This document shows, piece by piece, positions 1 to 63,107 of a DNA stretch of 63,107 nucleotides. The stretch's first letter is position 1, and every line of letters starts with the position of its first letter. The DNA is from a virus (Duplodnaviria; Caudoviricetes): the IMG/VR virus record IMGVR_UViG_3300030104_000829, positions 1 to 63,107 of that record; one strand, given 5' to 3'. The position numbers were made by a program, and so were the translations under genes. The notes beneath the pieces were generated by a model, which did no database searches, had not been told where the DNA came from, and saw only the letters and a list, made by a program, of their open reading frames with translations.

Positions 1-133
1 GTATTGTATTACCTGTCTTGTGTTCGATGATAGGCACATAACTGTACGTTTTAGTTGTTGAACACTGAACACACGTTTTATAACCTAACTCGATCCGTAC
101 TGGGTGCACGGTTTGACCACATTTGCAATACAT
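1..133 (-). CDS. partial small zinc-finger-like protein (runs off the window)
   Basis: ATG at 133 just downstream of promoter motif copy; translates MYCKCGQTVHPVRIELGYKTCVQCS (CxC...CxxC). Confidence 0.6.
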   Translation of the reverse strand, partial: MYCKCGQTVHPVRIELGYKTCVQCSTTKTYSYVPIIEHKTGNTI

Positions 134-147
134 ATTTTTGTTTATTA

Positions 148-180
148 TATTATCTGTTGGTAATATTATTTTGTTTGTAA
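148..180 (-). promoter_or_regulatory. bipartite early promoter motif, copy 1
   Basis: minus strand TTACAAACA-N15-CAGATAATA; six copies with identical spacing. Confidence 0.8.
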
Positions 181-345
181 TAATTTGTTAAGTGCAACAT
201 TTATTACATACTCTTTCATTTCTTGATAGTCATCGCCTTCAAGAGGTGTGTCTGCTAATTGCCAATCAACACTGTCTTCAATTATTTCTTTCATGTGATC
301 CGCCACGCCTTGCGCTATAAGATCTAGTTCTTTCATTTTACTCAT
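166..345 (-). CDS. small acidic early protein (59 aa)
   Basis: MSKMKELDLIAQGVADH...LQTK; ATGA overlap with the upstream ORF. Confidence 0.6.
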   Translation of the reverse strand: MSKMKELDLIAQGVADHMKEIIEDSVDWQLADTPLEGDDYQEMKEYVINVALNKLLQTK

Positions 346-875
346 TTTGCATAGTTTTTAAGGTAATAGTTTAACATAAAGTTTAATCTTGTTATTGGTG
401 AATGTATAAGCGCACGAGCTTTAGTCATACCTTTTGATGTATACAACTCACCATTTTCTCTCTGCCATACGCATCTATAATTCTGCTCGTATGTAGGATT
501 TAGTTGATATGCTCTGTCTGCACCATTTTGCTTACGTACATAACCTGACTTGAAACAAGCCAGTCTTAGTCTTGGTAAATCTTTTAATTTAGAGTTTGGA
601 AACCAAGATCTACTGTGTGTTAATTGAAGACTTTCTTGTTTATTACGTTCTATAAACCACTTAAGTCTTTGTTTAGTATACGCAGGCACAGGAAACTCGA
701 ACTCACGAGTACCGTTTTTAGCTTGCCGCTGTGTTGTTATTTCTCTGATTCCGTAGTCGATAAGCATGCGCTTTACGAACTGTTCTTCGAGCATAAATTG
801 CTCAGCTTGATAATTTGTCATAGTGATTTTATTTGTTTTAATTGTTCTATTGAGTATCTTGATTGATATTTCCAC
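342..875 (-). CDS. hypothetical early protein
   Basis: 177-aa ORF in early gene train; true start may be MTNYQ at 821. Confidence 0.65.
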   Translation of the reverse strand: MEISIKILNRTIKTNKITMTNYQAEQFMLEEQFVKRMLIDYGIREITTQRQAKNGTREFEFPVPAYTKQRLKWFIERNKQESLQLTHSRSWFPNSKLKDLPRLRLACFKSGYVRKQNGADRAYQLNPTYEQNYRCVWQRENGELYTSKGMTKARALIHSPITRLNFMLNYYLKNYAK

Positions 876-1072
876 ATACGGTTGTGAGTGAACTTACGAA
901 ACTTAGTGAAGTTTTTCTTTTGGTTGACACGTACTCGATTGTACTCTTTGTCAGTAAGTCCACTACACCTGCCGTCATGGAGAGTTAGACGCCTATGCTC
1001 GTCTGCTCTGATTTTACGTTGTGCTTTAGCATAAGCGCACAATTCTTTCATGTTAGTTACTTTGTTATACAT
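818..1072 (-). CDS. hypothetical basic early protein
   Basis: 84-aa ORF overlapping both neighbours. Confidence 0.6.
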   Translation of the reverse strand: MYNKVTNMKELCAYAKAQRKIRADEHRRLTLHDGRCSGLTDKEYNRVRVNQKKNFTKFRKFTHNRMWKYQSRYSIEQLKQIKSL

Positions 1073-1214
1073 AAGTGTTATTGTTTATAGTGTAAAACTT
1101 GTTGTAACTTTGATAAGATTTTTCAAAATAGTATTTAGTATAAGGAACTTTAGTAAGTAAAGTATTATTATTTAATAGTATTTGATTGTTAGGTAAGAAT
1201 TTTATTGTTTGCAT
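1065..1214 (-). CDS. small early protein (49 aa)
   Basis: AATACTATG start directly after promoter copy 2; MQTIKFLPNN... Confidence 0.5.
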   Translation of the reverse strand: MQTIKFLPNNQILLNNNTLLTKVPYTKYYFEKSYQSYNKFYTINNNTYV

Positions 1215-1229
1215 AGTATTATTTATATA

Positions 1230-1262
1230 TATTATCTGCTAGTGATATTATTTTGTTTGTAA
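1230..1262 (-). promoter_or_regulatory. bipartite early promoter motif, copy 2
   Basis: TTACAAACA-N15-CAGATAATA. Confidence 0.8.
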
Positions 1263-1390
1263 TTAACTGTAGTATACATCAGTATATTCTTCTACTGTTA
1301 CAAATTTACCTAATTCATGAGAGTAAATCATATCATCTATTACATGCTCGTCATCAAACGACCATATTTTCTCGTGTGTATGTTTTATTT

Positions 1391-1588
1391 TCATCTGTAG
1401 TCAGTATTAGGTTGAATACTATTTGATACATTTTGACGGAATTGCCATTCACGTTTACGATATTCGTAGTCAGTACACCATTTTCTCCATGATTTACTTA
1501 CAGGTTTTTCACCCCATTCTGCTTCGAATTTATTTATTTGTTCTAGTTTTGCAGCGATTTGCTCTGCAGGATAATCTTGAAATTGCAT
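1391..1588 (-). CDS. hypothetical early protein
   Basis: 65-aa ORF with AATACTATG start. Confidence 0.65.
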   Translation of the reverse strand: MQFQDYPAEQIAAKLEQINKFEAEWGEKPVSKSWRKWCTDYEYRKREWQFRQNVSNSIQPNTDYR

Positions 1589-1592
1589 AGTA

Positions 1593-1727
1593 TTATTTAT
1601 TAGTTGATTTATAAAATTTTATTCTGTCTTGAACGTCTTTACGAGATATCTCGCCGCTCATTTGTTTTAGTATGTCGCTTGACATATCTATTTGTTTACC
1701 GTTAGGTAGATTTAGTATAAATTGCAT
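1593..1727 (-). CDS. small early protein (44 aa)
   Basis: AATACTATG start; MQFILNLPNGKQIDMS... Confidence 0.55.
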   Translation of the reverse strand: MQFILNLPNGKQIDMSSDILKQMSGEISRKDVQDRIKFYKSTNK

Positions 1728-1738
1728 AGTATTATATT

Positions 1739-1858
1739 TTAATAGAAATTATAGTATATATCTAACACTTTAGACTTTTGTTCATCAGTTAGTTTAGTAT
1801 AGTGCTTGTCGAATAGTCGCCAAGATATTTTTAGTAATGTGTAAGATTTAGTTGACAT
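1739..1858 (-). CDS. small early protein (39 aa)
   Basis: ATAACTATG start; MSTKSYTLLKISWRLFDKHY... Confidence 0.5.
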   Translation of the reverse strand: MSTKSYTLLKISWRLFDKHYTKLTDEQKSKVLDIYYNFY

Positions 1859-1869
1859 AGTTATATTAT

Positions 1870-2007
1870 TTAAAGAGTTATTAATTTAGTTTGGAAGCGT
1901 TGGTATACATATACTTCATCGAGTAATTCTTGTGGAAGAACTGGTAGTATTTCATGGTTACTTTGTAGCCATAGTGATAAGCGCGATATGTATTTTATAC
2001 GTTTCAT
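1870..2007 (-). CDS. small early protein (45 aa)
   Basis: ATG just downstream of promoter copy 3; MKRIKYISRL... Confidence 0.45.
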   Translation of the reverse strand: MKRIKYISRLSLWLQSNHEILPVLPQELLDEVYVYQRFQTKLITL

Positions 2008-2014
2008 TTTATTA

Positions 2015-2047
2015 TATTATCTGTGTTAGAAATTATTTTGTTTGTAG
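2015..2047 (-). promoter_or_regulatory. bipartite early promoter motif, copy 3
   Basis: CTACAAACA-N15-CAGATAATA. Confidence 0.75.
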
Positions 2048-2085
2048 ACATAGTGAGAATCGAACTCACTTTAACCATTATGTCT
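2045..2085 (-). ncRNA. anticodon-less tRNA-like minihelix (acceptor stem + GG loop + T-arm)
   Basis: AGACATA-ATGGTTAAA-GTGAG-TTCGATT-CTCAC-TATGTCT-A: perfect 7-bp acceptor, 5-bp T-stem, canonical T-loop. Confidence 0.7.
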
Positions 2086-2087
2086 TG

Positions 2088-2157
2088 CTCACGTGTATTT
2101 ACTCTGCCCAGTTAAGCCTGCTTCAAAGCCAAAGGTTCGGACAGTCACCCGTGTGAG
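2088..2157 (-). ncRNA. unknown structured RNA (interrupted rod)
   Basis: nested pairings CTCAC/GTGAG, CTGTCC/GGGCAG, CCT/AGG, GCT/AGC in a GC-rich intergenic island. Confidence 0.5.
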
Positions 2158-2177
2158 ATTTTATTTTGAAATGTAGT

Positions 2178-2408
2178 TTACTTTACTTCGACTACATTTC
2201 TTACTGAAACTGGTACGTTATTTGATGAAGTATAAGATTTATACTTGAGAAAACATGGCATAGTTTCTAGTTTACTTTTCATAATTTCAAATACTTTATC
2301 GTGATCATAAGTACAAGTTTTGCCATTTTTAAAGTTGACAGTTATAGTTTGATTTTTACCGATTAAAGATTTTCTGATTACGAATCTTTTAGAAATTAAA
2401 TTTTGCAT
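2178..2408 (-). CDS. hypothetical early protein
   Basis: 76-aa ORF after promoter copy 4. Confidence 0.7.
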   Translation of the reverse strand: MQNLISKRFVIRKSLIGKNQTITVNFKNGKTCTYDHDKVFEIMKSKLETMPCFLKYKSYTSSNNVPVSVRNVVEVK

Positions 2409-2447
2409 AGTTATTATTATTAAGTTATTATTATTTAGTTACATTTA

Positions 2448-2480
2448 TATTATCTGTAATGTGTTTAGTTTTGTTTGTAA
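2448..2480 (-). promoter_or_regulatory. bipartite early promoter motif, copy 4
   Basis: TTACAAACA-N15-CAGATAATA. Confidence 0.8.
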
Positions 2481-2532
2481 AAGTTGTATATTTATTTAAT
2501 TGTTAGTAATGTTAGTAAAGTACTGCACGAAG

Positions 2533-2616
2533 TGTCATAATGTCATATAGATGTCATATTGTCATTAAGACATATTGTCATAGTTATCAGTGACTTACTG
2601 TCATGTCAACTTGTCA
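2533..2616. repeat. cluster of 8 direct TGTCA repeats (iteron-like)
   Basis: TGTCA at 2533, 2541, 2552, 2560, 2576, 2599, 2604, 2612 in non-coding DNA. Confidence 0.75.
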
Positions 2617-2621
2617 TATAG

Positions 2622-2729
2622 TTATATTGTAGTAATAACGTGGACAAGAATCATAGTTAGACATGGTATAATAAAAGTGATTGTAAATATTAAACCGATT
2701 GTTTGAGTGATATTATCTTTTTTAAGCAT
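2622..2729 (-). CDS. small single-TM peptide (35 aa)
   Basis: first ORF after promoter copy 5; hydrophobic IGLIFTITFIIPCLTMILVHVI. Confidence 0.5.
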   Translation of the reverse strand: MLKKDNITQTIGLIFTITFIIPCLTMILVHVITTI

Positions 2730-2757
2730 AGTATTATTTTAAATTGTTTTACAGTTA

Positions 2758-2790
2758 TATTATCTGCAAAAAGCCTAAATCTGTTTGTAA
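2758..2790 (-). promoter_or_regulatory. bipartite early promoter motif, copy 5
   Basis: TTACAAACA-N15-CAGATAATA. Confidence 0.8.
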
Positions 2791-2907
2791 AAATGCTAAA
2801 AAAAAGGCTAGGGGTGGCAAAAAAAGCTAAATTTTCCTAGAATTACAGATAAAAAACGGGTAGGGGGAACACAATTGCTCTCTATTTGTAACGTTTTTTT
2901 AAAATAG

Positions 2908-2948
2908 GACATAAGCCTTATAAAGTATATAAGTAACAGTCTATTGTC
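2908..2948. promoter_or_regulatory. inverted-repeat binding site, copy A
   Basis: GACATAAGCC-N21-GTCTATTGTC; same architecture at 58646-58686. Confidence 0.6.
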
Positions 2949-3010
2949 ACACTTGTAAAAATCTCACTTTATCTGTAAGTATATATAATATAAGAAATTA
3001 ACAAAGAACT

Positions 3011-4237
3011 ATGGCAATAATTAACTCTTACCCAACAGTAACACCTACAGGTAGTGATCTTATAATAGGTACTGATGTATCTACTACACCTAACTCTACT
3101 AAGACATTTACTATCGATAGCATAAACGCACTAGCGACTGGAACACCAGCTGCTGGAACACTAAATACATTAGCATTATTCACTAGCGCTGTAGCGATAG
3201 GTGATTCAACAATAGTAAGATCAGGTGCAGGAGCTACTTCTACTTATACTTTTGGTGGAGGAACAGCTATAAACAACACATCGATAACAACTGATGATTT
3301 AACTACAAACGGCAATACAATATTAGGTAACGCTGGCACAGATACATTAACAGTTAACGCTGCTACAACTTTCGCAGATGACGTTACTGTAAACGGAAAT
3401 TTAAAAAGTTTAATAATGGGGCTAACTAGTCCTATAAAGTTTCTTGATGGTGCTGGTTCTCCAAGATTAACAATTGGAGGAAATATAACAGGTAATTCAG
3501 TTATAAACGAGTCAGGAGCTGGAGATCTTATTTTAGCCTCTAATACAGAAGTTGAAATTAAGTCAGGGGAACTAGGAGAAAACTTTGCTAAATTCACAAA
3601 AGACGGACCTATTGAACTTTACTACGATAACGTTAAAAAGTTTGAAACAACAAACACTGGTGTTACAATAACAGGTACTCAATCTTCTTTCAGTGGCCAA
3701 GTGACTATACCAACAACACCTGTAGCAGCTACAGACGCCGCTTCTAAATCATATGTTGATACTTCTATATCTGGAGCTGCATATTTACCTTTAGCAGGTG
3801 GAACAATGTCTGGCGATATTATATTATCGGATAATGTAAAATTAGAGGTTGGAGACGCAGCAGGTGGTGATTTACAAATATATCATGATGGTTCTGATAG
3901 TTATATAGACGAACAAGGAACTGGAGATCTTAAAATAAAAGGTTCTACTAATGTATACATATCTACATCAAGTGGTGGAACAATGGCACAATTTACTGAT
4001 AGTGGTAGTGCTTTTCTTTATCACTCAGGTAATTTAAGATTAGGAACTATGGCGGCTGGTGTTACAGCATACGGTGATGTTACTACTACTGGTCAATTTA
4101 GAGTAAACGCATTAAACGCAGCTCCTGCCTCAGCTTCAGCAGCAGGTACTTTAGGAGAAATAAGATTTACAGCAGACCATATATATGTGTGCGTAGCAAC
4201 AAACACATGGAAAAGAGTTGCTATAGCTACTTTCTAG
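3011..4237 (+). CDS. tail fibre/virion structural protein
   Basis: G/T/S-rich; YLPLAGGTMSG, DLQIYHDGSDSYI and C-terminal YVCVATNTWKR motifs typical of phage fibres. Confidence 0.7.
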   Translation: MAIINSYPTVTPTGSDLIIGTDVSTTPNSTKTFTIDSINALATGTPAAGTLNTLALFTSAVAIGDSTIVRSGAGATSTYTFGGGTAINNTSITTDDLTTNGNTILGNAGTDTLTVNAATTFADDVTVNGNLKSLIMGLTSPIKFLDGAGSPRLTIGGNITGNSVINESGAGDLILASNTEVEIKSGELGENFAKFTKDGPIELYYDNVKKFETTNTGVTITGTQSSFSGQVTIPTTPVAATDAASKSYVDTSISGAAYLPLAGGTMSGDIILSDNVKLEVGDAAGGDLQIYHDGSDSYIDEQGTGDLKIKGSTNVYISTSSGGTMAQFTDSGSAFLYHSGNLRLGTMAAGVTAYGDVTTTGQFRVNALNAAPASASAAGTLGEIRFTADHIYVCVATNTWKRVAIATF

Positions 4238-35462: not shown

Positions 35463-38400
35463 ATGGAATTAGTAGAAAAAGTACAAGAACTACAAGCTAT
35501 TAAACCACCTTTAGATATCGATGAGATAAATAGAAGAATACAAGAGTGGAAAAAATCTACTGGTTATAAAGCACCAGAGGCGGTAGAAGTTAAAGAAGTA
35601 AAGACAAACGACTCCCAGACACAGGATCCGAGCTCGGAGTCAGAAGACAATACAGGATCCGAATCGGACGATGGATCTTCACAGCAACCACTTTTTAGTT
35701 TATCTTCAACATCAAGTTTGTCTAATAAAAAAGGTGGATTTGGAACAGGTGAGTTCGCTGGTTCATTAAATAAGTTTAGACAAGAAGAACAACAGAAAAA
35801 AATTAACCAATATACTTCTGTTGCTAAACCAAATGAAATTATAACTAAAAACGGTTATGATTTTAAGTATGATGAAAATGGTATATATTATTATAAACCT
35901 AAAGGATCTTCAGATGATAAATGGAAAACTTATAAAGATAAAAATGGTGCAGGTAATTTAGGTATAGCAGCTCAATTTGGTCATTCAGATTTTGACTCAA
36001 GTGCGTCATATTCCACAAGAAAGCAATTAAAAGAAGGTGAAGAAGTTTATAGTAGTATTGATGGTCAATTAATTATTACGGAGGGTAAACAATATACTTT
36101 GACTCCAGAAATGTTAGAATTAGAAAAAGAGTTTTTAGAAGCAACTTCTTTAACTGATAATGACAATATAGATATACAAAAAGATGTAGATAAATGGTTT
36201 TCAAAGAAAGTTATACCTCAATATAAAACAGAACCATATGTAGATCCATATTCAAAAACGGGTAATGTTAAGAAAAGAAAAGTTAAGACAGGTGAAATGA
36301 TACCTAATCCTGAGTGGGAGCAAGCTCAAATAAAATCAAAAGAAGCTTGGGATAAACTAGATCCCAAACCTACTGATATTTCAGAGCAGCAGTGGATTGA
36401 AAACAATATGAAAAAAACTTATACTGCTGAGTTAGTAGATAAGAAAGAAAAAGACAAACTAGAATCTTGGATAGAAGATCAAGATAGTAAATTTAACTGG
36501 AAAAGAGCGCTTCAGCTTTTTGGACCAGCAAGAGGTGCAGTTCTTGCCGGCGAAAGTGTTGTTGAAAAAGGCGACAAGCAAAAAGCAGTTAAATATATTC
36601 AAGATATAAGAAAACTTAATTTAGATAATAAAGAAAAAGATGCTAATAATTTTGCTAATTCGGCTAAAACTAGCATAGAAGCCTTAAATAATCAAATAAT
36701 TATCTTATCTAAAGCCAAATATCAAACTGAAGGGGAAGCAAAAAGAGGAAAGGCTTTAATAACTAAACTTACTGAAAAAAGAGATAAAATATTTGGACTT
36801 TATGAGTCTAAAATAGAGGACTTAAACACCATGATGCTTGAGCCTGAGTACAAAAACTTGAGCACAAGACTTGATTATTTAGAAAGAAATTTTAATCCTA
36901 TAGCTATTTTTGGTGAAAATGTTAAAATTGCCGCGGTTAACGCAGGAAAGTCTATACTTGATCTTGGACACATGGTTGTTAACGCACCAAATGCTTTTGG
37001 TATTACTGATAATCCTATAACATCAAAAGTTTTTAATGTTTTTTCACCTGGTGCTTCTTTAGCGGCTAAGTTTTTAAGATCAGACGCTTATACAGAAGCT
37101 AGGGGAAATTTAAATAATATAGTTGATGCTTATGTAGAGCAAACTTCTAATGGTATTGCTCATGCTCAAACTTTATCTGATTTAAAAGACGGTGATGATT
37201 GGGGTAGATATTTTTCAACGATGCTTGGAAGTCAGTCTATTAACACTGCTGTTATGTTTATGGGTGGTGGTGCTGCTTTACCTATATTAACAGGTCAAGC
37301 TGTTGGCTCTAGTTATCGCGAAATGGAAAAAGATAATGAAGAAAAAGCAGCTAAAGGTCAACCAGTTTTTTCTCCACTTCAAATGTATGGAGTAGCAATA
37401 GGTAATGGTATTTTAGAATTTGGTTCTGAAAGAATATCACTCGGTATAATAAATAGATCTAGAGCCGCTTTTAATTCTATGGGTCCTAGTGTAAGGCAGG
37501 GTTTTTCTCAACAAGTTGCTAGTTTATTAACAACAAAAGGAGCAACTAGAACAGCTAAAGGTATTGGATACTTTGGTTTGGACGCAACTAAAGAAGGTGC
37601 TTCAGAAGGTTTCGTTGAATTAGGTGGGAACATGTTTGACAGATATATATTAGGCAAAGATGTGAATCTTTTTGATGGTGTTCCAGACGCTACTTTTAGT
37701 GGAGCTTTTATGGCTAGTGGTGTTTATAAAGCACCAGCGTTATTTGCTAATGTATCTCAAATGGTTCAAGGGCCAGATAGTAATACTAAAATAGCTAACA
37801 ATAGGTCTAAAATATTAGAATTACAAAATACACTAATAGCTAATCCTAACATGTCAGATGCTAATAGAGCTAGATTAAACGATCAAATAGTAGATTTAAC
37901 CAGAAGCTCTAGTAATGAAATAAATAAAACACTAAACAGATTTAGTGAAATGGATAGATCTGAGATTGATGATTTATCTGATATAGAATTACAAGTAAAC
38001 AACAAAAGAAAGGCTATTGACGAAGTTAATTCTGATCCTAACTTTAATGATAAAGAACCTGAGATAAATAGAATTAAAAATGAAATACTAGAGCTTGAAA
38101 TACAAAAAAATAATATCTTAAAACCTTATATTGATGCTGATGCTAAACAAAGCAAAAAACCTAAATTAGATGGTTCAGGTAGTTTTACAGAATTTAATAT
38201 TCCACCAGTTGAATTAACTAATAGAATTCAAAAAGGTGCTGACGTTGTAGCTGATCAATTAGGTGATGTCGGTATTACTAGATTTGACACAACAGAAGAC
38301 ATTGTTGGAGCTTTTGAAACGTTAAAAGAACAAGGTATAAAGCTAGATGTAGCAACAAACGATGCTGGCGAGATACTAGATGCTAAAGACCAAGGGTATG

Positions 38401-41400
38401 GTATAATAGCTACTTTACCAGATGGAACTAAACAAATTGTTATAAACAATGCCTCAAGTGAAGCTGACGGTACTATACCCGCTGACAACCACGAGTTAAT
38501 ACACGCTTTTGCTAGTAAAGTAAATCCTGATCTTTTACTTAAAATGGGTATAGATTTAAAAAATAAACTAGATAACGATCCTTTTGTTAAAGTTGATGCT
38601 ACAACTAAATCTTTATTAAACGATTATGCAACTGACTTAAAAGATGGTAAAATAAGTGAAGCTACTTTTTATGAAGAAGTTATGGCTGTTACGAGTGACG
38701 CTTTAACTACTGGTGGTATTCAAATAACTGACCCAACTAAATTTGCTCAAACATGGAATTTTTTAGAAACTATAGGCTGGAATCAAAGTTTTAAAGACGG
38801 AGATCAAGTTATAGACTTTTTAAAAGGATTTAATAAAGATTTATTAAGTGGCGAAGGTTTATCGCAGCAAACATTAGATGCGGCACAAGTTGAATTAGAT
38901 ACTGAAAACCTTGATGAAGTTGACTTAGGCACTGTTAAAAAATCTAATAAAAAGCAGGAAAAAGTAGATAATGCAGCTGGACCTAAAGACGATGCTGGTA
39001 ATTACACAGTTACTAAAGCTGAATGGGATGCGGGTAAAGCTGATCAAGCAATAGGTGATTTATTTGGTAATAATACTCTTCAAGGTTTAATTGAAAGTAA
39101 AATACCTTCACCAAGTCAACAGCCTCCTGGTTTTAGTAAAGATGATTTTGTACAAGCAACCGTCACAGAGTTAATACCTCATATTAGAAACTTTAATCCA
39201 GAAGTAAACAATAGTTTATCTGGCTGGATAAATTCTCAATTATCTAATAAAATTGGTAATGTATTTAAAAAAGGAGAAGCAGGTACTAAAGATGTTTTTG
39301 AAGCAGATGTGACCGAAGCAAAAGGCGTTGTAGCTGAAACAGAAACAGAAGTAGAAACACAAGCACCTAGAAGAAAAAGAAGTCCAAAAGGAGATGCTAT
39401 TTATAGCTCTGTATTAACAGAAAACCTAGGCACAGATGTTGCTCCTGCTATTGAAACAGCAATACAGACTGATCTTAAAACGACACCTGTAGCTAATATG
39501 GCAGGTACTAGAAATATAGGTCCGGCTTTAGGTAGAACACTGGGAAAAGCTTTTGGTATTAATCCTAAAGTTTTTACAGACAAAAGACAAAACATACAGA
39601 AAAAAGATTTAAAAGGTTTAGTAAACTTAAAACAATATCTTAACAATAATGCTCAGCAAGATTTTAAAAACTTACCTGATGCTTATGATTCTAGTGGTAA
39701 ATCTACTTTTATACCTAACAACATATTAAATGCTTTATATGTTAAAGATGGAAAAGGTAAATGGAAATTAGATCCTAGCAAAACAGTTGCTGACTATAAA
39801 AACTTATTAGGTGATATAACTAGTGATAAACCTATATATAGAGCAGCAGAAGCTCAAACCATAAAAGGTTTAGCTGGATTATCTTTTAGAAATAAAATGT
39901 TTGAAACTGCTTTTCCCAAAGCAGAATTAAGAGTTGGTACTGGTGTTAAGTTTAGTAAAAAAGCAGATAAAAATAAAACAATAAAAAAACAACAAGAAGA
40001 TATTGTAGAAAGCTTTGGCGCTAAAGTAATAAAAAAAGGTAAAGAAGGAGTTAACAGGGTTTCAGAGTTTATAACTAGTGGTATGGTAGATGGTTTTGGA
40101 GATGCTACTTCATTGCTTTTAACACCATCAACGTGGGCTGGAGCAGGTAATAATATAGCTTCAGCTTTAAAAAGAGGTTTTTTAGCTATTAACGACGCTT
40201 CAAGAGCTTCAAAAAATAAAAAAGACTCTATAGATGGAGTTAAAAATGGTGATATACTTGAATTAAAAACTGTAAAAGGAGAAGTAAACCAAAAAACTAA
40301 TGTTAAAAACCTAGATAAAGATACACAAAGAGATATTAAAAATGCCATAGGTAGTCAAAAAGGTGCTGCTAAAGCTGAAAAGAACCAAGGACAACAAAAC
40401 TCTATTTTAAAAGGTAAAAACTTTATTCTTGATGGTATTAGAAAAATAGTTTTAAATAATAAATTTGATATAGCTGGTTTACAATTTATGCTAGGTAATC
40501 AAAATGCTAATGCTGGTTTAGCTAGAAACATGGCTACAATTAACAATGACGGTAGAACAAACAAAAAAGGTAAAGCATACGAAGAACATTGGTTTCCAAT
40601 GAGTGCTTGGGTAACAAACACATTAAAAGCTTCTGGTCTTAGTGACGCGGTGTGGAAGGGTTGGAAAGATTTGTCAAACGAAATTTACTATCAAGAAATA
40701 GTTAACAAAGATCTTCAAGAAAATCACTTAGATAAAACTTATGATGTAAAAATGCCAGATGGTTCTGTTGTAAAATGGAACTCAAAGAGTGGTTTGCATC
40801 CTTTACTAGACAATGCTATAAATTTAGGTTTAGAAACAGGTGATTTTAGTGATGCTAAGAGATTAGCTGATATAAGAAAATATCCTGGAAAAGATGTACA
40901 TACTGCTGTTAATCCATTTACACATGGTAGAAACGGCGTTAGTGATGCTGTTAGATATGATATTATAGTAAGTAAAGATTTACAATCAAATCCTAACATA
41001 CAGCATGCTACTAGCTCTTTAATAAATGAAATTATAATTGGAAAAATAACTTCTAAGCAAGCTCAAGAAAGAATAGACGCCTACGAAACAACAGCTAAAG
41101 ACGAAGTTAAGTCAAGTAAAAAAAATAATAAAACTTTTGGAGACAAAGTAAATCCTGATTCTACTATAGAAGATCAAATAAAAGATCTAGGTAATTATGA
41201 TAAAGCTGCAGACCTAGGTAGAGCATTAGATACTCCAACAAAAGGTATTAGTGTTTTTGATTTTGATGACACGTTAGCTAAAACAAAAGAAAAAGTAATA
41301 GTAAACAAAAGAGATGGTTCTACCGTAGAAATATCTGCATCTGAGTTTGCTCAACAAGCAGCTAATTTAGAAGCTGATGGAGCTGCATTTGATTTTACTA

Positions 41401-43922
41401 ATTTTGAAAAAGTTGCTGATGGTACATCAAAAGGACCATTAGCTGATCTTGCTTTAAAACGTCAAGATAAGTTTGGTAGTAAAGATATTTTTGTATTAAC
41501 AGCTAGACCTCAGGTTTCTGCTTCAGCAATTAAAACATTTTTAGATGGTATTGGTTTAAATTTACCTTTAGGAAATATAACAGGATTAGCAGACGGAACA
41601 CCAGGTGCAAAAGGTAGATGGGTTGCAAGTAAAGCAGCGGAAGGTTATAATGATTTTTATTTTGCTGATGATGCTGTAAAAAATGTTAAAGCAGTAAAAG
41701 AAGTATTAGATCAAATAGATGTTAAGTCTGACGTACAAATAGCTAAACAAAGTAAAAAGAAAAACTTTGATAAAATATTTAACGATATACTAGAAAGCTC
41801 TACCGGTATTGAGTCATTTAAAGAATATTCAAAAGCAAAAGCTCAAACTGTAGGTAAGAAAAAAGGTAAATTTAGTTTCTTTACTACACCTTCAGCTGAA
41901 GACTTTTTAGGTTTATTATATAAAACACTAGGTAAAGGAAAAGTTGGTGAAGCTCAAATAGATTTTTATAAGAAAAATTTATTAGACACTTACGATAGAG
42001 CTGAATTAGCTACAACAAGAGCTAAAATTCAAGCTGCTGCAGACTTTAAAAAGTTAAAAGGTAATTTAAAAACATTACCTAAAAGCTTAAGTAAAGAAAT
42101 GGGTTACGGTGGATTTACGCATTCACAAGCTGCAAGAGTTGCTGTATGGACTAGACAAGGTATGACTATACCTGGTCTTTCTAAAACTGATTTAAAAGCA
42201 TTAAATGATTTTGTAGATAAAAATGCTGAAATGAATACTCTTGTTGATGAATTAATGAAAATACAAAAAGGCAAAGAGTATCCAGCTCCAAGCGATAGTT
42301 GGTTGGCTGGAACTATTACCACAGATGTATTAAATGGTATAACAAAAGTAAACAGAAAAGAATATTTACAAGAGTGGCAAGAAAATGTAGACATTATATT
42401 TTCTGACAAAAACATGAACAAGTTGGAAGCCGCATACGGTCCTAAGTATGTAGAAGCTTTACGTGATCAATTACGTAGAATGAAGTCAGGATCTAATAGA
42501 CCTATCGGTGGTTCTAGGGTTGTTAACAACCTTTTAGATTGGCTTAATAACTCTGTAGGTGCTATTATGTTCTTAAACACTAGATCAGCCGTCTTACAAA
42601 CTCTTTCAGCAGTTAACTTTATAGGTGTTGGAAACAATAGTTTAATAAATTCTGCTAAAGCTTTTGCTAATCAAAAACAATATTGGAAAGATTTTAAGAC
42701 ATTAATGAACTCTCCTTACTTAGTTGAAAGACGTAATGGCTTAAAAATAAATGTAAGTGAATCTGAAATAGCCGATGCAGTTGCTGAAAGTTCTGATAAA
42801 CCTAAAGCTGCTTTAAATTATTTATTGAATAAAGGATTTGTATTAACTAGGTTTGCTGACAGTTTTGCTATTGCAACAGGTGGCGCTGGTTTCTATAGAA
42901 ATCAATTAGACATGTATATTAAGCAAGGTATGCCACAAGATCTTGCACAAAAACAAGCTTTTGAAGATTTTTATGCTATTGCAGAGAAAAATCAGCAATC
43001 AAGTAATCCAAGCAAAATATCACAACAACAAGCAAGCGGTGCTGGTCGTGTAATACTAGCTTTTGCTAATACACCAATGCAGTATGCTCGTATTATAAAA
43101 AGATCTACACAAGATCTAATAAGTGGTAGAGGAGATTGGAAGAAAAACGTAGGCACGATAGCTTTTTATGGTGTAGCACAAAACTTAATATTTAACGCCA
43201 TGCAAAACGCTTTATTTGCTGACGCTTTTGGTGAAGAAGAAGAAGAAGAAAAAGACAACAACAAAACAGGTAGAATAGCTAACGGTATGGCTGATTCTTT
43301 GTTAGATGGTTTAGGTATACAAGGTAAAGCTGCTTTAGCACTTAAAAACTCTTTAATAACTTTAGCTAAAGAAAATGATAAAAAATCACCTAAGTTTGTA
43401 AAAGCTGTTTATGACTTATTTGATTTTTCACCACCATTAGATTCTAAGTTTAGAAAATTAAGAGTTGCTGCTAATACTTTTACATGGGATAGACAGTTAA
43501 TGAAAGAAAAAGGATTTAGCTTAGATAACCCTGCTTATTTAGCTGGCGCACAGGTTATATCAGGTTTAACAAACCTACCTCTTGATAGAGCTATTCAAAA
43601 AATGAATAACATTAGAGGTATAATGAGTGAGCAATCTCAGAACTGGCAAAAAGTTGCTTTAGCTTTAGGTTGGTCAACTTGGGATGTTGGATTAGGATAT
43701 TATGGTGGGTTTGATCCTGTAAAACCTCTTACGCCAGAACAACAATATGATTTAGATGTTTCTAACATGAAAAAAGAAACTACATCTAAACAACAAAAAC
43801 AAATGTTGCTAGACTTAGGTTTAACAAGACAAGAGCTTAAAAAGTTAAGATACGAAGAAGATAGAGTTAAAAAAATAATTGAACTACAAAAAAAGAAAAA
43901 AAATGCCAGATCCAAAGAATAA
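35463..43922 (+). CDS. giant polyvalent cargo protein (HExxH peptidase, sigma-2-like, HAD domains)
   Basis: 2819 aa; NHELIH; FNPEVNNSLSGWIN; VFDFDDTL/LTARP/FADD. Confidence 0.75.
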   Translation: MELVEKVQELQAIKPPLDIDEINRRIQEWKKSTGYKAPEAVEVKEVKTNDSQTQDPSSESEDNTGSESDDGSSQQPLFSLSSTSSLSNKKGGFGTGEFAGSLNKFRQEEQQKKINQYTSVAKPNEIITKNGYDFKYDENGIYYYKPKGSSDDKWKTYKDKNGAGNLGIAAQFGHSDFDSSASYSTRKQLKEGEEVYSSIDGQLIITEGKQYTLTPEMLELEKEFLEATSLTDNDNIDIQKDVDKWFSKKVIPQYKTEPYVDPYSKTGNVKKRKVKTGEMIPNPEWEQAQIKSKEAWDKLDPKPTDISEQQWIENNMKKTYTAELVDKKEKDKLESWIEDQDSKFNWKRALQLFGPARGAVLAGESVVEKGDKQKAVKYIQDIRKLNLDNKEKDANNFANSAKTSIEALNNQIIILSKAKYQTEGEAKRGKALITKLTEKRDKIFGLYESKIEDLNTMMLEPEYKNLSTRLDYLERNFNPIAIFGENVKIAAVNAGKSILDLGHMVVNAPNAFGITDNPITSKVFNVFSPGASLAAKFLRSDAYTEARGNLNNIVDAYVEQTSNGIAHAQTLSDLKDGDDWGRYFSTMLGSQSINTAVMFMGGGAALPILTGQAVGSSYREMEKDNEEKAAKGQPVFSPLQMYGVAIGNGILEFGSERISLGIINRSRAAFNSMGPSVRQGFSQQVASLLTTKGATRTAKGIGYFGLDATKEGASEGFVELGGNMFDRYILGKDVNLFDGVPDATFSGAFMASGVYKAPALFANVSQMVQGPDSNTKIANNRSKILELQNTLIANPNMSDANRARLNDQIVDLTRSSSNEINKTLNRFSEMDRSEIDDLSDIELQVNNKRKAIDEVNSDPNFNDKEPEINRIKNEILELEIQKNNILKPYIDADAKQSKKPKLDGSGSFTEFNIPPVELTNRIQKGADVVADQLGDVGITRFDTTEDIVGAFETLKEQGIKLDVATNDAGEILDAKDQGYGIIATLPDGTKQIVINNASSEADGTIPADNHELIHAFASKVNPDLLLKMGIDLKNKLDNDPFVKVDATTKSLLNDYATDLKDGKISEATFYEEVMAVTSDALTTGGIQITDPTKFAQTWNFLETIGWNQSFKDGDQVIDFLKGFNKDLLSGEGLSQQTLDAAQVELDTENLDEVDLGTVKKSNKKQEKVDNAAGPKDDAGNYTVTKAEWDAGKADQAIGDLFGNNTLQGLIESKIPSPSQQPPGFSKDDFVQATVTELIPHIRNFNPEVNNSLSGWINSQLSNKIGNVFKKGEAGTKDVFEADVTEAKGVVAETETEVETQAPRRKRSPKGDAIYSSVLTENLGTDVAPAIETAIQTDLKTTPVANMAGTRNIGPALGRTLGKAFGINPKVFTDKRQNIQKKDLKGLVNLKQYLNNNAQQDFKNLPDAYDSSGKSTFIPNNILNALYVKDGKGKWKLDPSKTVADYKNLLGDITSDKPIYRAAEAQTIKGLAGLSFRNKMFETAFPKAELRVGTGVKFSKKADKNKTIKKQQEDIVESFGAKVIKKGKEGVNRVSEFITSGMVDGFGDATSLLLTPSTWAGAGNNIASALKRGFLAINDASRASKNKKDSIDGVKNGDILELKTVKGEVNQKTNVKNLDKDTQRDIKNAIGSQKGAAKAEKNQGQQNSILKGKNFILDGIRKIVLNNKFDIAGLQFMLGNQNANAGLARNMATINNDGRTNKKGKAYEEHWFPMSAWVTNTLKASGLSDAVWKGWKDLSNEIYYQEIVNKDLQENHLDKTYDVKMPDGSVVKWNSKSGLHPLLDNAINLGLETGDFSDAKRLADIRKYPGKDVHTAVNPFTHGRNGVSDAVRYDIIVSKDLQSNPNIQHATSSLINEIIIGKITSKQAQERIDAYETTAKDEVKSSKKNNKTFGDKVNPDSTIEDQIKDLGNYDKAADLGRALDTPTKGISVFDFDDTLAKTKEKVIVNKRDGSTVEISASEFAQQAANLEADGAAFDFTNFEKVADGTSKGPLADLALKRQDKFGSKDIFVLTARPQVSASAIKTFLDGIGLNLPLGNITGLADGTPGAKGRWVASKAAEGYNDFYFADDAVKNVKAVKEVLDQIDVKSDVQIAKQSKKKNFDKIFNDILESSTGIESFKEYSKAKAQTVGKKKGKFSFFTTPSAEDFLGLLYKTLGKGKVGEAQIDFYKKNLLDTYDRAELATTRAKIQAAADFKKLKGNLKTLPKSLSKEMGYGGFTHSQAARVAVWTRQGMTIPGLSKTDLKALNDFVDKNAEMNTLVDELMKIQKGKEYPAPSDSWLAGTITTDVLNGITKVNRKEYLQEWQENVDIIFSDKNMNKLEAAYGPKYVEALRDQLRRMKSGSNRPIGGSRVVNNLLDWLNNSVGAIMFLNTRSAVLQTLSAVNFIGVGNNSLINSAKAFANQKQYWKDFKTLMNSPYLVERRNGLKINVSESEIADAVAESSDKPKAALNYLLNKGFVLTRFADSFAIATGGAGFYRNQLDMYIKQGMPQDLAQKQAFEDFYAIAEKNQQSSNPSKISQQQASGAGRVILAFANTPMQYARIIKRSTQDLISGRGDWKKNVGTIAFYGVAQNLIFNAMQNALFADAFGEEEEEEKDNNKTGRIANGMADSLLDGLGIQGKAALALKNSLITLAKENDKKSPKFVKAVYDLFDFSPPLDSKFRKLRVAANTFTWDRQLMKEKGFSLDNPAYLAGAQVISGLTNLPLDRAIQKMNNIRGIMSEQSQNWQKVALALGWSTWDVGLGYYGGFDPVKPLTPEQQYDLDVSNMKKETTSKQQKQMLLDLGLTRQELKKLRYEEDRVKKIIELQKKKKNARSKE

Positions 43923-59581: not shown

Positions 59582-59688
59582 TTATATCTTTTATTGTTTA
59601 ATCTATTATAATGCGCGTCTAATAATATATGAGCAACCTCTTCGCTGATCATATTATCATTATATAATTTCCATATTACTTTACTCAT
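59578..59688 (-). CDS. small protein (36 aa)
   Basis: MSKVIWKLYND; ATGA overlaps at both ends. Confidence 0.45.
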   Translation of the reverse strand: MSKVIWKLYNDNMISEEVAHILLDAHYNRLNNKRYK

Positions 59689-61484: not shown

Positions 61485-61930
61485 GCTTCTGTTTTTTCAT
61501 ATTCGTAACCTTCTTCTATTAATTCATTTTCAACTTCTTGTTTCATATCATTTACATACTCATCATACACTTCTGTAACTGCATCTTGTACATAATAAGA
61601 ATCTAAATCATCTACGTAGATAATATCATTATAATCAGTCATAGCTTCAGATAGTTTTTCTGCTAAGTCATTTTCGTAATAATGTACATCTTCGTTGATA
61701 CACACGTTTCTACCATCACCGTGAGTTGCAACCCATACTTCGTAGCCATCTGCTGTGCTTTCTGTATATATACTGTAGCAAGGAGTCTCGTTCCAGTTAT
61801 CTGTTAGTTTAAAATCGTAGTGTTTTTGTATTACTTTAAGTGCTTCATCGTGGTCAATATCAAACTTCACGCCACGAGCTTCTAATCTTTTATCGATTAG
61901 TTCTTCTGTTATTAATTTTTTAGTTCCCAT
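61481..61930 (-). CDS. acidic hypothetical protein
   Basis: 149 aa, D/E-rich. Confidence 0.65.
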   Translation of the reverse strand: MGTKKLITEELIDKRLEARGVKFDIDHDEALKVIQKHYDFKLTDNWNETPCYSIYTESTADGYEVWVATHGDGRNVCINEDVHYYENDLAEKLSEAMTDYNDIIYVDDLDSYYVQDAVTEVYDEYVNDMKQEVENELIEEGYEYEKTEA

Positions 61931-62207
61931 ATTCTATTTTATTATTATTAGTTACCATCCATTCACAGTCATTTACCTTGTGACCTGCTCCGTATAAGAA
62001 CGATTCACAAGATTCTGTGTCAGGGTTCCATTCATTTTCTTTTGTACATAATACGCTAATGTCATATCTATATACTTTACCATCTGTAAAATCTAGTAAG
62101 AATATATATTTAGCTGACTCATCCGCTGTTATTACTTCTTTTGCATTGTTACCAAAGTGTCCAACAATTGGATTATCTTCGAAGTATTTTGTTACTGAAT
62201 CACTCAT
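61920..62207 (-). CDS. hypothetical protein
   Basis: 95-aa coupled ORF. Confidence 0.6.
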   Translation of the reverse strand: MSDSVTKYFEDNPIVGHFGNNAKEVITADESAKYIFLLDFTDGKVYRYDISVLCTKENEWNPDTESCESFLYGAGHKVNDCEWMVTNNNKIEYGN

Positions 62208-62448
62208 AGTCTTTAGATATTAAAATGTTATCGCCATATTTAAAATCCCATGCAGTAACTTTAATTAACTCAATATCAGAAAATGTATATAACATGCTAA
62301 TGTCACTTATTTTTAAGTTAGAATAAAAATATTCATTACTTAGCGTTTCAATAACACTTAGCACACTGCTTTCATAGTTTACAGTATTCGCTAGTAAAGC
62401 CTCTTTAACTTCGGGTTTTAGTCTTTCGTAGATTGTTAGTCTTTTCAT
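62200..62448 (-). CDS. hypothetical early protein
   Basis: 82 aa after promoter copy 6. Confidence 0.65.
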   Translation of the reverse strand: MKRLTIYERLKPEVKEALLANTVNYESSVLSVIETLSNEYFYSNLKISDISMLYTFSDIELIKVTAWDFKYGDNILISKDYE

Positions 62449-62464
62449 ATTTATTATTTAATTA

Positions 62465-62497
62465 TATTATCTGTTGGTGTTTGTATTTTGTTTGTAA
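62465..62497 (-). promoter_or_regulatory. bipartite early promoter motif, copy 6
   Basis: TTACAAACA-N15-CAGATAATA. Confidence 0.8.
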
Positions 62498-62704
62498 TTA
62501 CTCACCAAGTACAATGACGTCGCCATGAATAGACTCGTTTTCAATAATAGACTCTACATCTTGCCAATGATACCAGTCCATTTCTAGTTCTGTCATTGTT
62601 TGCTTAATTTGATTTACTTTGTTTTGTTGACCATTGTTGTCGCCAATAATATAACCACCGACAAATAGTACGCACGCTAGTGCAATCGCTTTTCTTCTGT
62701 TCAT
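62498..62704 (-). CDS. small membrane-anchored protein
   Basis: MNRRK plus hydrophobic segment. Confidence 0.55.
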   Translation of the reverse strand: MNRRKAIALACVLFVGGYIIGDNNGQQNKVNQIKQTMTELEMDWYHWQDVESIIENESIHGDVIVLGE

Positions 62705-62718
62705 ATATTTAATTTTAG

Positions 62719-62792
62719 GTGCGCCAGCAGGATTCGAACCTGCGACCTCTAGGTTATGAGCCTAGCGAGCTGACCAACTGCTCCACAGCGCA
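62719..62792 (-). tRNA. tRNA-Met(CAT), initiator-like D-arm, CCA not encoded
   Basis: TGCGCTG/TGGCGCA acceptor, GAGC/GCTC D-stem, CTAGG-CTCATAA-CCTAG, GCAGG-TTCGAAT-CCTGC. Confidence 0.92.
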
Positions 62793-62798
62793 ATATAG

Positions 62799-62877
62799 TG
62801 GAGGTGGACAGAATCGAACTGTCTTCCGTAATAATTCCTTTGCAGGCTTTTTACTACGTCAAAACCATATCACCCCC
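62799..62877 (-). ncRNA. minimal tmRNA: tRNA-like domain only
   Basis: GGGGGTGATATGGTTTTGAC 5' end, G3:U70, A73, 8-bp P2-like helix with GNRA hairpin, GACAG-TTCGATT-CTGTC T-arm. Confidence 0.8.
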
Positions 62878-62881
62878 CAAA

Positions 62882-62964
62882 AATACCACCTGTCACTACG
62901 ACTGGCTTTGTACAACTGATACCTCAAGGAAGCCAAGGCGTCGATTTACTGTTAGGGTGGTATT
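62882..62964 (-). ncRNA. unknown structured RNA (interrupted rod)
   Basis: AATACCACC/GGTGGTATT, CGAC/GTCG, TGGCTT/AAGCCA nested stems. Confidence 0.55.
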
Positions 62965-63107
62965 GCTAGCAATTCACTTATGTGCGTGTAATACACTTCC
63001 GATTTCCATAAGGACTCACATACACACCTAATTAAGCTACTCGTCTAGCTATTTACGCTTCACAACCGTGCACTACTATTTCAAGCTGTGATTGTTCTTC
63101 GCGCTAT

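Follow-up and report, generated by a model that had tools for sequence, protein, structure and literature searches.

The viral record IMGVR_UViG_3300030104_000829 (63,107 bp; estimated completeness 98%), analyzed here over its whole length as the window, carries two tightly packed early arrays of RNA modules in which rod-shaped hairpins, designated rod1 and rod2, lie directly 5' of modules resembling transfer RNA (tRNA). We propose, with moderate confidence, that rod1 and rod2 belong to two separate, conserved and phage-specific RNA families, which would serve as autonomous payloads of the early arrays and be released by tRNA-style processing. The architecture stands beyond chance because both rods and the tRNA-like minihelix behind rod1 show covariation, and because a hairpin recurs directly 5' of tRNA-like modules. 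The original prediction, a first reading of the same DNA, had placed rod1 next to the minihelix and rod2 next to a reduced transfer-messenger RNA (mini-tmRNA) followed by a tRNA-Met, and both the coordinates and the spacings that it gave proved correct (Table 1). Both rods are GC-rich, as it had stated (51% for rod1 and 46% for rod2 versus 33% for the genome), and its count of two occurrences of this architecture is exact, because the only three T-arm motifs (GTTCRANTC) of the window all belong to these modules. Judged by sequence comparison, the position of rods 5' of tRNA-like modules is confirmed and is general among relatives. The structure, conservation and strand of the rods, their packing and the exchange of modules can all be read from the alignments and arrays described below.

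Table 1. Modules of the two early arrays and the promoter-like motif that follows the first, with positions in the window
Feature	Positions	Strand	Support or remark
rod1, member of a conserved phage RNA family	2088-2157	minus	alignment A1, covariation
tRNA-like minihelix	2045-2085	minus	partial match to Rfam tRNA; alignment A2
Early promoter-like motif GATAATATAAT of the next small open reading frame	2011-2021	minus	23 nt past the minihelix end
rod0, first module of the second array	62965-63048	minus	two conserved strands, paired
rod2, second conserved RNA family	62882-62964	minus	alignment A3
mini-tmRNA (tRNA-like domain only)	62796-62877	minus	Rfam tmRNA
tRNA, anticodon CAU (called tRNA-Met), last array module	62718-62792	minus	ARAGORN; Rfam tRNA, 64.5 bits

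Homologs of rod1 were collected with a pattern built from relatives, which retrieved 66 viral loci representing 52 distinct rows, the window copy included; 36 of these rows were judged to belong to the family (AT-rich relatives with a complementary helix) and the other 16 to be GC-rich chance matches. In the window copy, an outer stem pairs CUCAC (2157-2153) with GUGAG (2092-2088), a core helix joins CUGUCC (2139-2144) to GGGCAG (2104-2109), and three invariant segments, GGUGA (2145-2149), CGAACC (2134-2139) and AACUG (2109-2113), accompany an apical part that is variable. Throughout the alignment of 34 distinct rod1 sequences (A1) these three segments are free of any change, and all 19 invariant columns fall in GGUGACU, CGAACC and AACUG or in constant pairs of the core helix. 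The 6-bp core helix is nonetheless variable at other pairs: it is 97.5% paired, with compensatory changes at three of six pairs and AU, GC and CG all present at one position. Its covariation score of 0.452 compares with 0.115 in shuffles and was reached by none of 500, and controls with slid partners stayed at or below 0.09. A long form of rod1, to which the window copy belongs, adds the outer stem in five complementary versions around a conserved internal loop, and a short form lacks this stem. We read rod1 on the minus strand because, on that strand, the aligned helices contain 12 G-U pairs versus no A-C cells.

Comparison of the region 1900-2300 with Rfam 15 at E-values (E) up to 10 returned weak, chance-level rows, none of them over rod1. 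Nor did the family show coding potential: no frame is open throughout, and 10 of 25 elements, with lengths of 83-143 nt, have stops in all six frames. As an intrinsic terminator rod1 fails as well, since the 2 nt that separate it from the minihelix (2087-2086) read CA and the minihelix comes next. When the rod1 pattern was run on one genome from each of 185,579 species, it found 12 matches, 10 of which are unpaired and thus attributable to chance; the two true copies sit on contigs of metagenome-assembled genomes (MAGs) measuring 0.6 and 1.4 kb. A host copy of rod1 was accordingly rejected, there being just these two true copies on tiny MAG contigs, and on these sequence searches the family is phage-specific and essentially absent from cellular genomes. 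We likewise rejected a tie between rod1 and one upstream gene, since the upstream open reading frames (ORFs) vary and one relative with the same flanks has another minihelix and no rod1. Likenesses noticed by eye to RNase P RNA, signal recognition particle (SRP) RNA, the Ro-binding helix of Y RNA, the loops of phi29 packaging RNA and the hammerhead core were discarded because the matching letters either vary among rod1 members or fall in the covarying helix, and Rfam supports none of them. Directly upstream of rod1, an AT-rich hairpin of 9-10 bp (2165-2215, minus strand) lies over the stop codon of ORF 2408-2178; in Rfam it draws weak, chance-level microRNA rows only.

It is very improbable that rod1 acts on the array itself, be it as a new small ribozyme that cleaves itself or as an aptamer that senses a ligand. 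Its compact core, with invariant unpaired segments around a covarying helix, would suit such a role, as would its location in phage accessory regions, where small ribozymes are common, and the invariant GGU and ACC of A1 could be read as a pseudoknot. On the other hand, no ribozyme or riboswitch of Rfam 15 matched, either in the window (E up to 10) or in 48 kb from relatives (E up to 0.05); the hammerhead-like CUGAUGA occurs in only 2 of the 34 members, and there within the covarying helix; and neither a downstream expression platform nor a regulated gene is conserved.

Rod2 belongs to a second conserved family. Its CGAC/GUCG and GGCUU/AAGCC helices and its apical GUAU..GUAC hairpin are nearly invariant, and its closing stem, which ends at 62882/62883 and leaves 4-5 nt before the mini-tmRNA, varies in sequence. 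In the alignment of 24 rod2 members (A3), 96.6% of cells are paired, 6 of 17 pairs show compensatory changes and none of 500 shuffles reaches the covariation score; the covariation is located in the closing stem and the second helix. G-U pairs again outnumber A-C cells on the minus strand (27 versus 4), and predicted folding is mildly better than that of shuffles (z-score -1.68). The apex contains an 8-mer (62918-62925, minus strand) that takes three versions in A3, CCUUGAGG, CCUUAAGG and CAAGCUUG, all of them self-complementary. Because a self-complementary 8-mer is too short to form a hairpin loop of its own, its sequence suggests that rod2 may dimerize through RNA-RNA contacts.

The two rods belong to different families. 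The original prediction had connected them through shared words, and AGTAAAT and TTGGCTT are present in both, as it said; the link that it drew from them is within chance, given that two or more shared 7-mers arise in 7% of dinucleotide shuffles and that 5.7% of random 83-nt pieces of the window have as many in common with rod1 (p ~0.06-0.07). GUAAAU faces a GUGA strand and is conserved in rod2 and in the long form of rod1. We rejected it as a motif shared by every rod, since its frequency in arrays (1.05 per kb) is not enriched over that in flanking DNA (0.71 per kb).

Collectively, covariation among homologs and the excess of G-U pairs on the minus strand bear out the claim that the rods are structured minus-strand RNAs. 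An alternative that would place their function in DNA (recombination sites, operators or origin hairpins), in coding, or nowhere at all, as chance hairpins, is thereby close to refuted. What could be said for it is that a 74-codon plus-strand frame (1932-2156) overlaps rod1 and the minihelix, and that the rod2 8-mer is a DNA palindrome in two of its three versions. However, that frame is not conserved, the G-U to A-C ratios quoted above favor the minus strand in both families, the same modules sit inside tRNA-like RNAs, and covariation excludes chance.

The module behind rod1 reproduces the acceptor and T parts of a tRNA and little else. Its 7-bp acceptor (2079-2085 with 2046-2052) is joined by a 9-nt linker with an invariant GGUU to a T-arm (2053-2069) with a 5-bp stem and a 7-nt loop, and it ends in discriminator base A2045; D arm, anticodon arm and encoded CCA are all missing, the 9 nt standing in place of both arms. 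Rfam tRNA (RF00005) aligns to the acceptor and T parts alone, with 20.2 bits, below the gathering score of 29, and ARAGORN calls no gene at this position. Across 20 distinct minihelices (A2), 94.2% of cells are paired and 9 of 12 pairs show compensatory changes, and the window copy folds with a z-score of -2.43.

The second array opens with rod0, whose two conserved strands (63027-63048 and 62965-62984; 20-22 nt) pair and enclose a variable apical hairpin. Two conserved words located before rod2 had been considered as a promoter; this was rejected in favor of an RNA scaffold, rod0, because the words pair in 17 of 20 single-sequence folds and each occurs once in the window. The first strand is present in 47 related viral loci, where rod0 heads the array as a conserved scaffold behind the zinc-ribbon ORF described below, and the window copy of rod0 folds with a z-score of -2.42. 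Past rod2, the mini-tmRNA scores 64.7 bits on Rfam tmRNA (RF00023; gathering score 47, E 4e-25), that is, above threshold once filters are lax. It has a G3:U70 pair, a D-loop analogue, a T-arm and a helix capped by a GCAA loop, and it lacks a tag reading frame and pseudoknots, with 12 nt in place of 304 model positions; its folding z-score is -3.26. ARAGORN called no tmRNA in the window. The tRNA-Met lies 6 nt past the mini-tmRNA discriminator base, and the next ORF begins ~13 nt after it. At gathering score, Rfam 15 reports only tRNA in the whole window, and in the region 62650-63107 it yields tRNA, tmRNA and weak rows, with no family matching rod2.

We then compared these loci among relatives. 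In some 100 related IMG/VR contigs, both early loci are occupied by hypervariable arrays whose modules stand only 0-6 nt apart. This tight, polycistronic-looking packing supports that part of the original prediction which had inferred polycistronic cassettes. Behind rod0, 46 distinct arrays occupy the same genomic place among 48 loci (47 related loci and the window's own). Their components are rods of at least eight sequence families, tmRNA-like domains of three types, another tRNA-like element and true tRNAs. All three domain types keep G3:U70 and carry variable inserts in their capping helices; with the Rfam tmRNA model, the second type and the third reach 36-41 bits, and one strict pattern finds 53 viral contigs with short tmRNAs cut down to a tRNA-like domain of 68-92 nt. 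In 48 kb from 12 related loci, Rfam 15 recognized tRNA and tmRNA only, at E up to 0.05. Relatives (L004, L029, L042, L057 and L064, among others), unlike the window, also have a tRNA-like element whose acceptor strands, AACUAG/CUAGUU, mismatch at the first pair. It includes an internal hairpin that varies, a T-arm and an ACAAA trailer, and neither the tRNA nor the tmRNA model of Rfam matched it at E up to 0.05.

The recurrence of hairpins at tRNA-like modules was measured by counting modules preceded by a hairpin that spans at least 45 nt, has a dG of -15 or lower and ends within 5 nt of the module, setting aside those directly behind another T-arm module (4 tmRNA-like domains and 6 tRNAs). 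By this measure a hairpin precedes 24 of 36 tmRNA-like domains and 14 of 27 copies of the other tRNA-like element, versus 57 of 448 random positions in the same loci (Fisher p ~1e-13). True tRNAs are so preceded in 2 of 29 cases and compact minihelices in 1 of 10, the latter figure reflecting short rod1 forms that fall below the size cut-off. As for rod1 itself, 28 of the 36 copies have a T-arm module within ~150 nt downstream, mostly within 100 nt.

Modules are also exchanged between relatives. The first locus of the window is allelic with a short rod1 and a different minihelix in one relative, and with a different minihelix and no rod in another that has the same flanking genes. Rod2 closing stems come in at least five different versions, and 13 of its 20 free copies lie directly 5' of a tRNA (7), a mini-tmRNA (2), the second type of tRNA-like domain (2) or a minihelix-like element (2). 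In 4 of the 24 copies, rod2 is instead inserted in the capping helix of a tRNA-like domain. Copies of another rod family stand alone, lie within a tRNA-like domain or precede rod0, and the apical hairpins of rod0 recur as inserts in tRNA-like domains.

These arrangements bear on two further explanations. We consider it unlikely that the rods are 3'-end caps acting only in cis, such that, after an RNase P cut, the hairpin would shield the upstream early mRNA from 3' exonucleases and have no function of its own. Both arrays of the window do directly follow a small early ORF with a promoter-like motif, rods end 0-5 nt before the tRNA-like 5' end, and closing stems are free to vary in sequence. 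In addition, a consensus scan of positions 1-3100 for intrinsic terminators found three sites, all on the plus strand and none on the minus strand. However, a mere cap needs no invariant loops, and both the GGUGA, CGAACC and AACUG segments of rod1 and the near-identical core of rod2 are of this kind; some rods stand between two tRNA-like modules without a preceding ORF, or are embedded in a tRNA-like domain; and the predicted stability of rod1 is ordinary.

The other explanation would invert the roles: the tRNA-like modules would be the functional products, as decoys for SmpB, alanyl-tRNA synthetase or tRNA-targeting defences, and the rods leaders or spacers that counter misfolding and aid processing. 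Retention of G3:U70 in all three domain types speaks for such decoys, as do the far higher frequency of hairpins before tRNA-like modules than before true tRNAs and the published statement that a tmRNA reduced to the tRNA-like domain inhibits tmRNA (PMC4131195). We nevertheless judge this account improbable, as it leaves unexplained the conservation of rod sequences across different neighbors, the insertion of rods into tRNA-like domains and the rods that come last before a promoter (4 of the 20 free rod2 copies).

The reading that we favor assigns the payload to the rods, because invariant loops, closing stems free to vary and the tolerance of any scaffold point to modules that bind something specific. 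Each array would share a transcript with the small early ORF that precedes it, and host tRNA-processing enzymes would recognize each acceptor/T-arm unit. RNase P would cut the 5' end of the unit, and a 3' enzyme followed by CCA addition would complete its 3' end, whereby the rod would be freed or would form the 3' terminus of the RNA upstream of the cut. The smallest substrate that bacterial RNase P accepts consists of an acceptor stem and a T stem-loop stacked on each other, and we infer this cutting from the acceptor/T-arm shape; transcription and a binding function are likewise inferences. Each rod would be an autonomous, aptamer-like module that binds a partner, protein or RNA, through its invariant loops, with the tRNA-like pieces as processing marks and stable scaffolds. 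The tmRNA-like domains probably also act on their own, and tmRNAs made up only of the tRNA-like domain may, in addition, hold back SmpB and trans-translation.

Several observations weigh against this proposal. A search of RNA libraries gave four runs with small shares, all low-depth oligo-dT assembled contigs of relatives, mostly at 90-95% identity. The base 5' of the predicted RNase P site is A for the minihelix and G for the mini-tmRNA, CCA is not encoded, and a scan of 29 phage proteins yielded none for RNA binding or RNA processing. The folding energy of rod1 is no more stable than that of its own shuffles (z-score +0.33). The pairing of rods with tRNA-like modules is frequent and not obligatory in either direction: in 8 of 36 cases rod1 lacks a T-arm module within the next ~150 nt, 7 of 20 free rod2 copies have neither a tRNA-like module nor a tRNA directly 3' (none within ~130 nt), another RNA or a promoter coming next, and some minihelices occur without a rod, preceded by an ORF or by a different small hairpin. 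Finally, the sequences counted share kinship, so the counts are not independent events. As to the run X3, one contig of an oligo-dT marine RNA library contains a relative's minihelix (corresponding to 2044-2087) between different flanks, which is no proof of transcription.

A bolder version, which we put forward tentatively, would see the arrays as a combinatorial arsenal made of RNA only. Aptamer-like hairpin payloads would be displayed either free, behind a tRNA-like mark, or grafted into chargeable tmRNA-type domains and other conserved scaffolds. Diversifying selection would drive their reshuffling from one relative to the next, and their synthesis within minutes of the start of infection would serve to seize or neutralize host factors, for instance trans-translation, RNases and defences that sense RNA or cut tRNA. 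The arrays would then amount to a natural "tRNA scaffold" display of RNA, with rod2 perhaps a dimer through its 8-mer.

Early promoter-like motifs precede the arrays, which lie in the early region, where the original prediction had placed them. The record is circularly permuted, and a 62-codon ORF for a zinc-ribbon protein with four cysteines, which starts at 133 on the minus strand, spans the junction of the window (1-133, then from 63107 downwards); the two loci singled out by the original prediction therefore lie ~2 kb apart in a single minus-strand early arm. In relatives, this ORF ends just 5' of the second RNA array and is conserved directly upstream of it; it matches no Pfam or PHROG family. 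Motif GATAATATAAT, frequently with TTACAAAC in front, precedes each small early ORF, and both arrays are flanked by such promoter-like motifs on the minus strand. Besides the copy in Table 1, minus-strand copies in the early arm map to 2754-2764, 2444-2454, 144-154 and 62461-62471, with a further copy at 59648-59658 (at most one mismatch), and the whole window contains 15 matches versus 5.9 expected. The tRNA-like elements of relatives carry a 3' trailer (..TTACAAA) that overlaps this motif in its upstream half. Between the divergent early and late arms, at ~2890-2960 on the minus strand, an imperfect inverted repeat (GTGACAATAG..CTGTTAC .. AAGGCTTATGTC) resembles the sequence found 3' of rod1 in the eight relatives that have no minihelix.

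Among isolate phages, no close DNA relative of positions 1-4000 was found, and the sole match to 61500-63107 was the tRNA. The phage encodes ribonucleotide reductase, thymidylate synthase, a primase-helicase, ERF, DNA ligase, a GroEL-type chaperonin and a sigma-factor homolog. Because the primase-helicase is nearest to those of phages of Cellulophaga (43% identity), Riemerella, Tenacibaculum and Flavobacterium, the host is probably a marine member of Flavobacteriia. The late arm contains a 2819-codon ORF (35463-43922, plus strand) without Pfam or PHROG matches. This ORF had raised an N4-like reading with hairpin promoters, which was dropped, as the ORF matches no such family and the phage has a sigma-factor homolog instead.

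Small RNAs of phages are far less explored than phage proteins. If our reading is true, the rods would add two new covarying RNA families whose invariant loops are targets for structural work and for the search for partners, the arrays would represent a bacterial-virus case of tRNA-punctuated production of small RNAs, and they would offer natural evidence that tRNA-like domains serve as exchangeable scaffolds of other RNA modules. The known range of tmRNAs consisting of the tRNA-like domain alone is widened from one isolate phage to at least 53 viral contigs. The variability of arrays between near-identical phages resembles that of anti-defence islands, and the arrays may therefore mark an RNA-based layer of the arms race between phages and the abundant marine Flavobacteriia. 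The interpretation in the original prediction is thus supported in part: release by host RNase P, which it had already inferred, is a plausible hypothesis, and the role in host takeover that it had suggested is hypothetical.

Among known systems, tRNA punctuation is one of the nearest parallels. It operates in mitochondrial transcripts, in the MALAT1-mascRNA pair and in the tRNA-miRNA units of murine gammaherpesvirus 68. The likeness is that a tRNA-shaped element would define the ends of a neighboring RNA, and the present minihelix has exactly the acceptor plus T-arm shape. However, those systems are eukaryotic or organellar, whereas here the virus is bacterial and processing is a prediction; punctuation in a bacterial virus with hairpin payloads both 5' of the mark and inside it was not found in the literature searched. 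Bacterial Y RNA (YrlA) likewise combines a rod-like stem with a tRNA-like domain. In YrlA, the stem is formed from both ends and encloses the tRNA-like part, whereas the present rod is a separate hairpin 5' of the tRNA-like module. A link to Ro60 and Y RNA, raised by the original prediction, found no support: the Rfam YrlA model (RF02553) scores 15.5 bits versus a gathering score of 69 (E 2.1), this weak match falls on the tRNA and a portion of the mini-tmRNA, not on a rod, and no TROVE protein was seen among the phage proteins scanned.

Phage T4 provides a parallel of another kind. Its tRNA gene cluster also encodes two stable RNAs, RNAC and RNAD, which mature alongside the tRNAs. A published account refers to them as "RNAs of yet unknown functions" and classes them as late (PMC9697503). 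Like the present rods, they are small phage-encoded RNAs. They differ in that the arrays described here are early, comprise many exchangeable rod families, use cut-down tRNA-like modules where T4 has full tRNAs and change greatly from one close relative to another; the likeness drawn here is one of general description. IMG/VR itself has been mined for covarying RNA motifs, with ~10,000 candidate viral RNAs reported, many of them tRNA-like (PMC10690425). The accessible part of that article's text describes nothing resembling the present arrays, and one or both rod families may already figure in its supplementary catalogue without interpretation. No description of such arrays was found in the literature searched.

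The module behind rod2, finally, has counterparts among reduced tmRNAs. The tmRNA of mycobacteriophage DS6A is listed as "TLD only", that is, restricted to the tRNA-like domain (TLD), and the same source, with reference to Mao et al. 2009, describes a similar molecule as a strong inhibitor of tmRNA (PMC4131195); a "reduced form of tmRNA" is also mentioned for jakobid mitochondria (PMC3590771). The mini-tmRNA, devoid of tag frame and pseudoknots, shares with the DS6A molecule the reduction to a tRNA-like domain. This likeness concerns the neighbor of rod2, and the present domain differs from that of DS6A in being one module of an array, in occurring as three sequence types and in having a capping helix that accepts exchangeable rod inserts.

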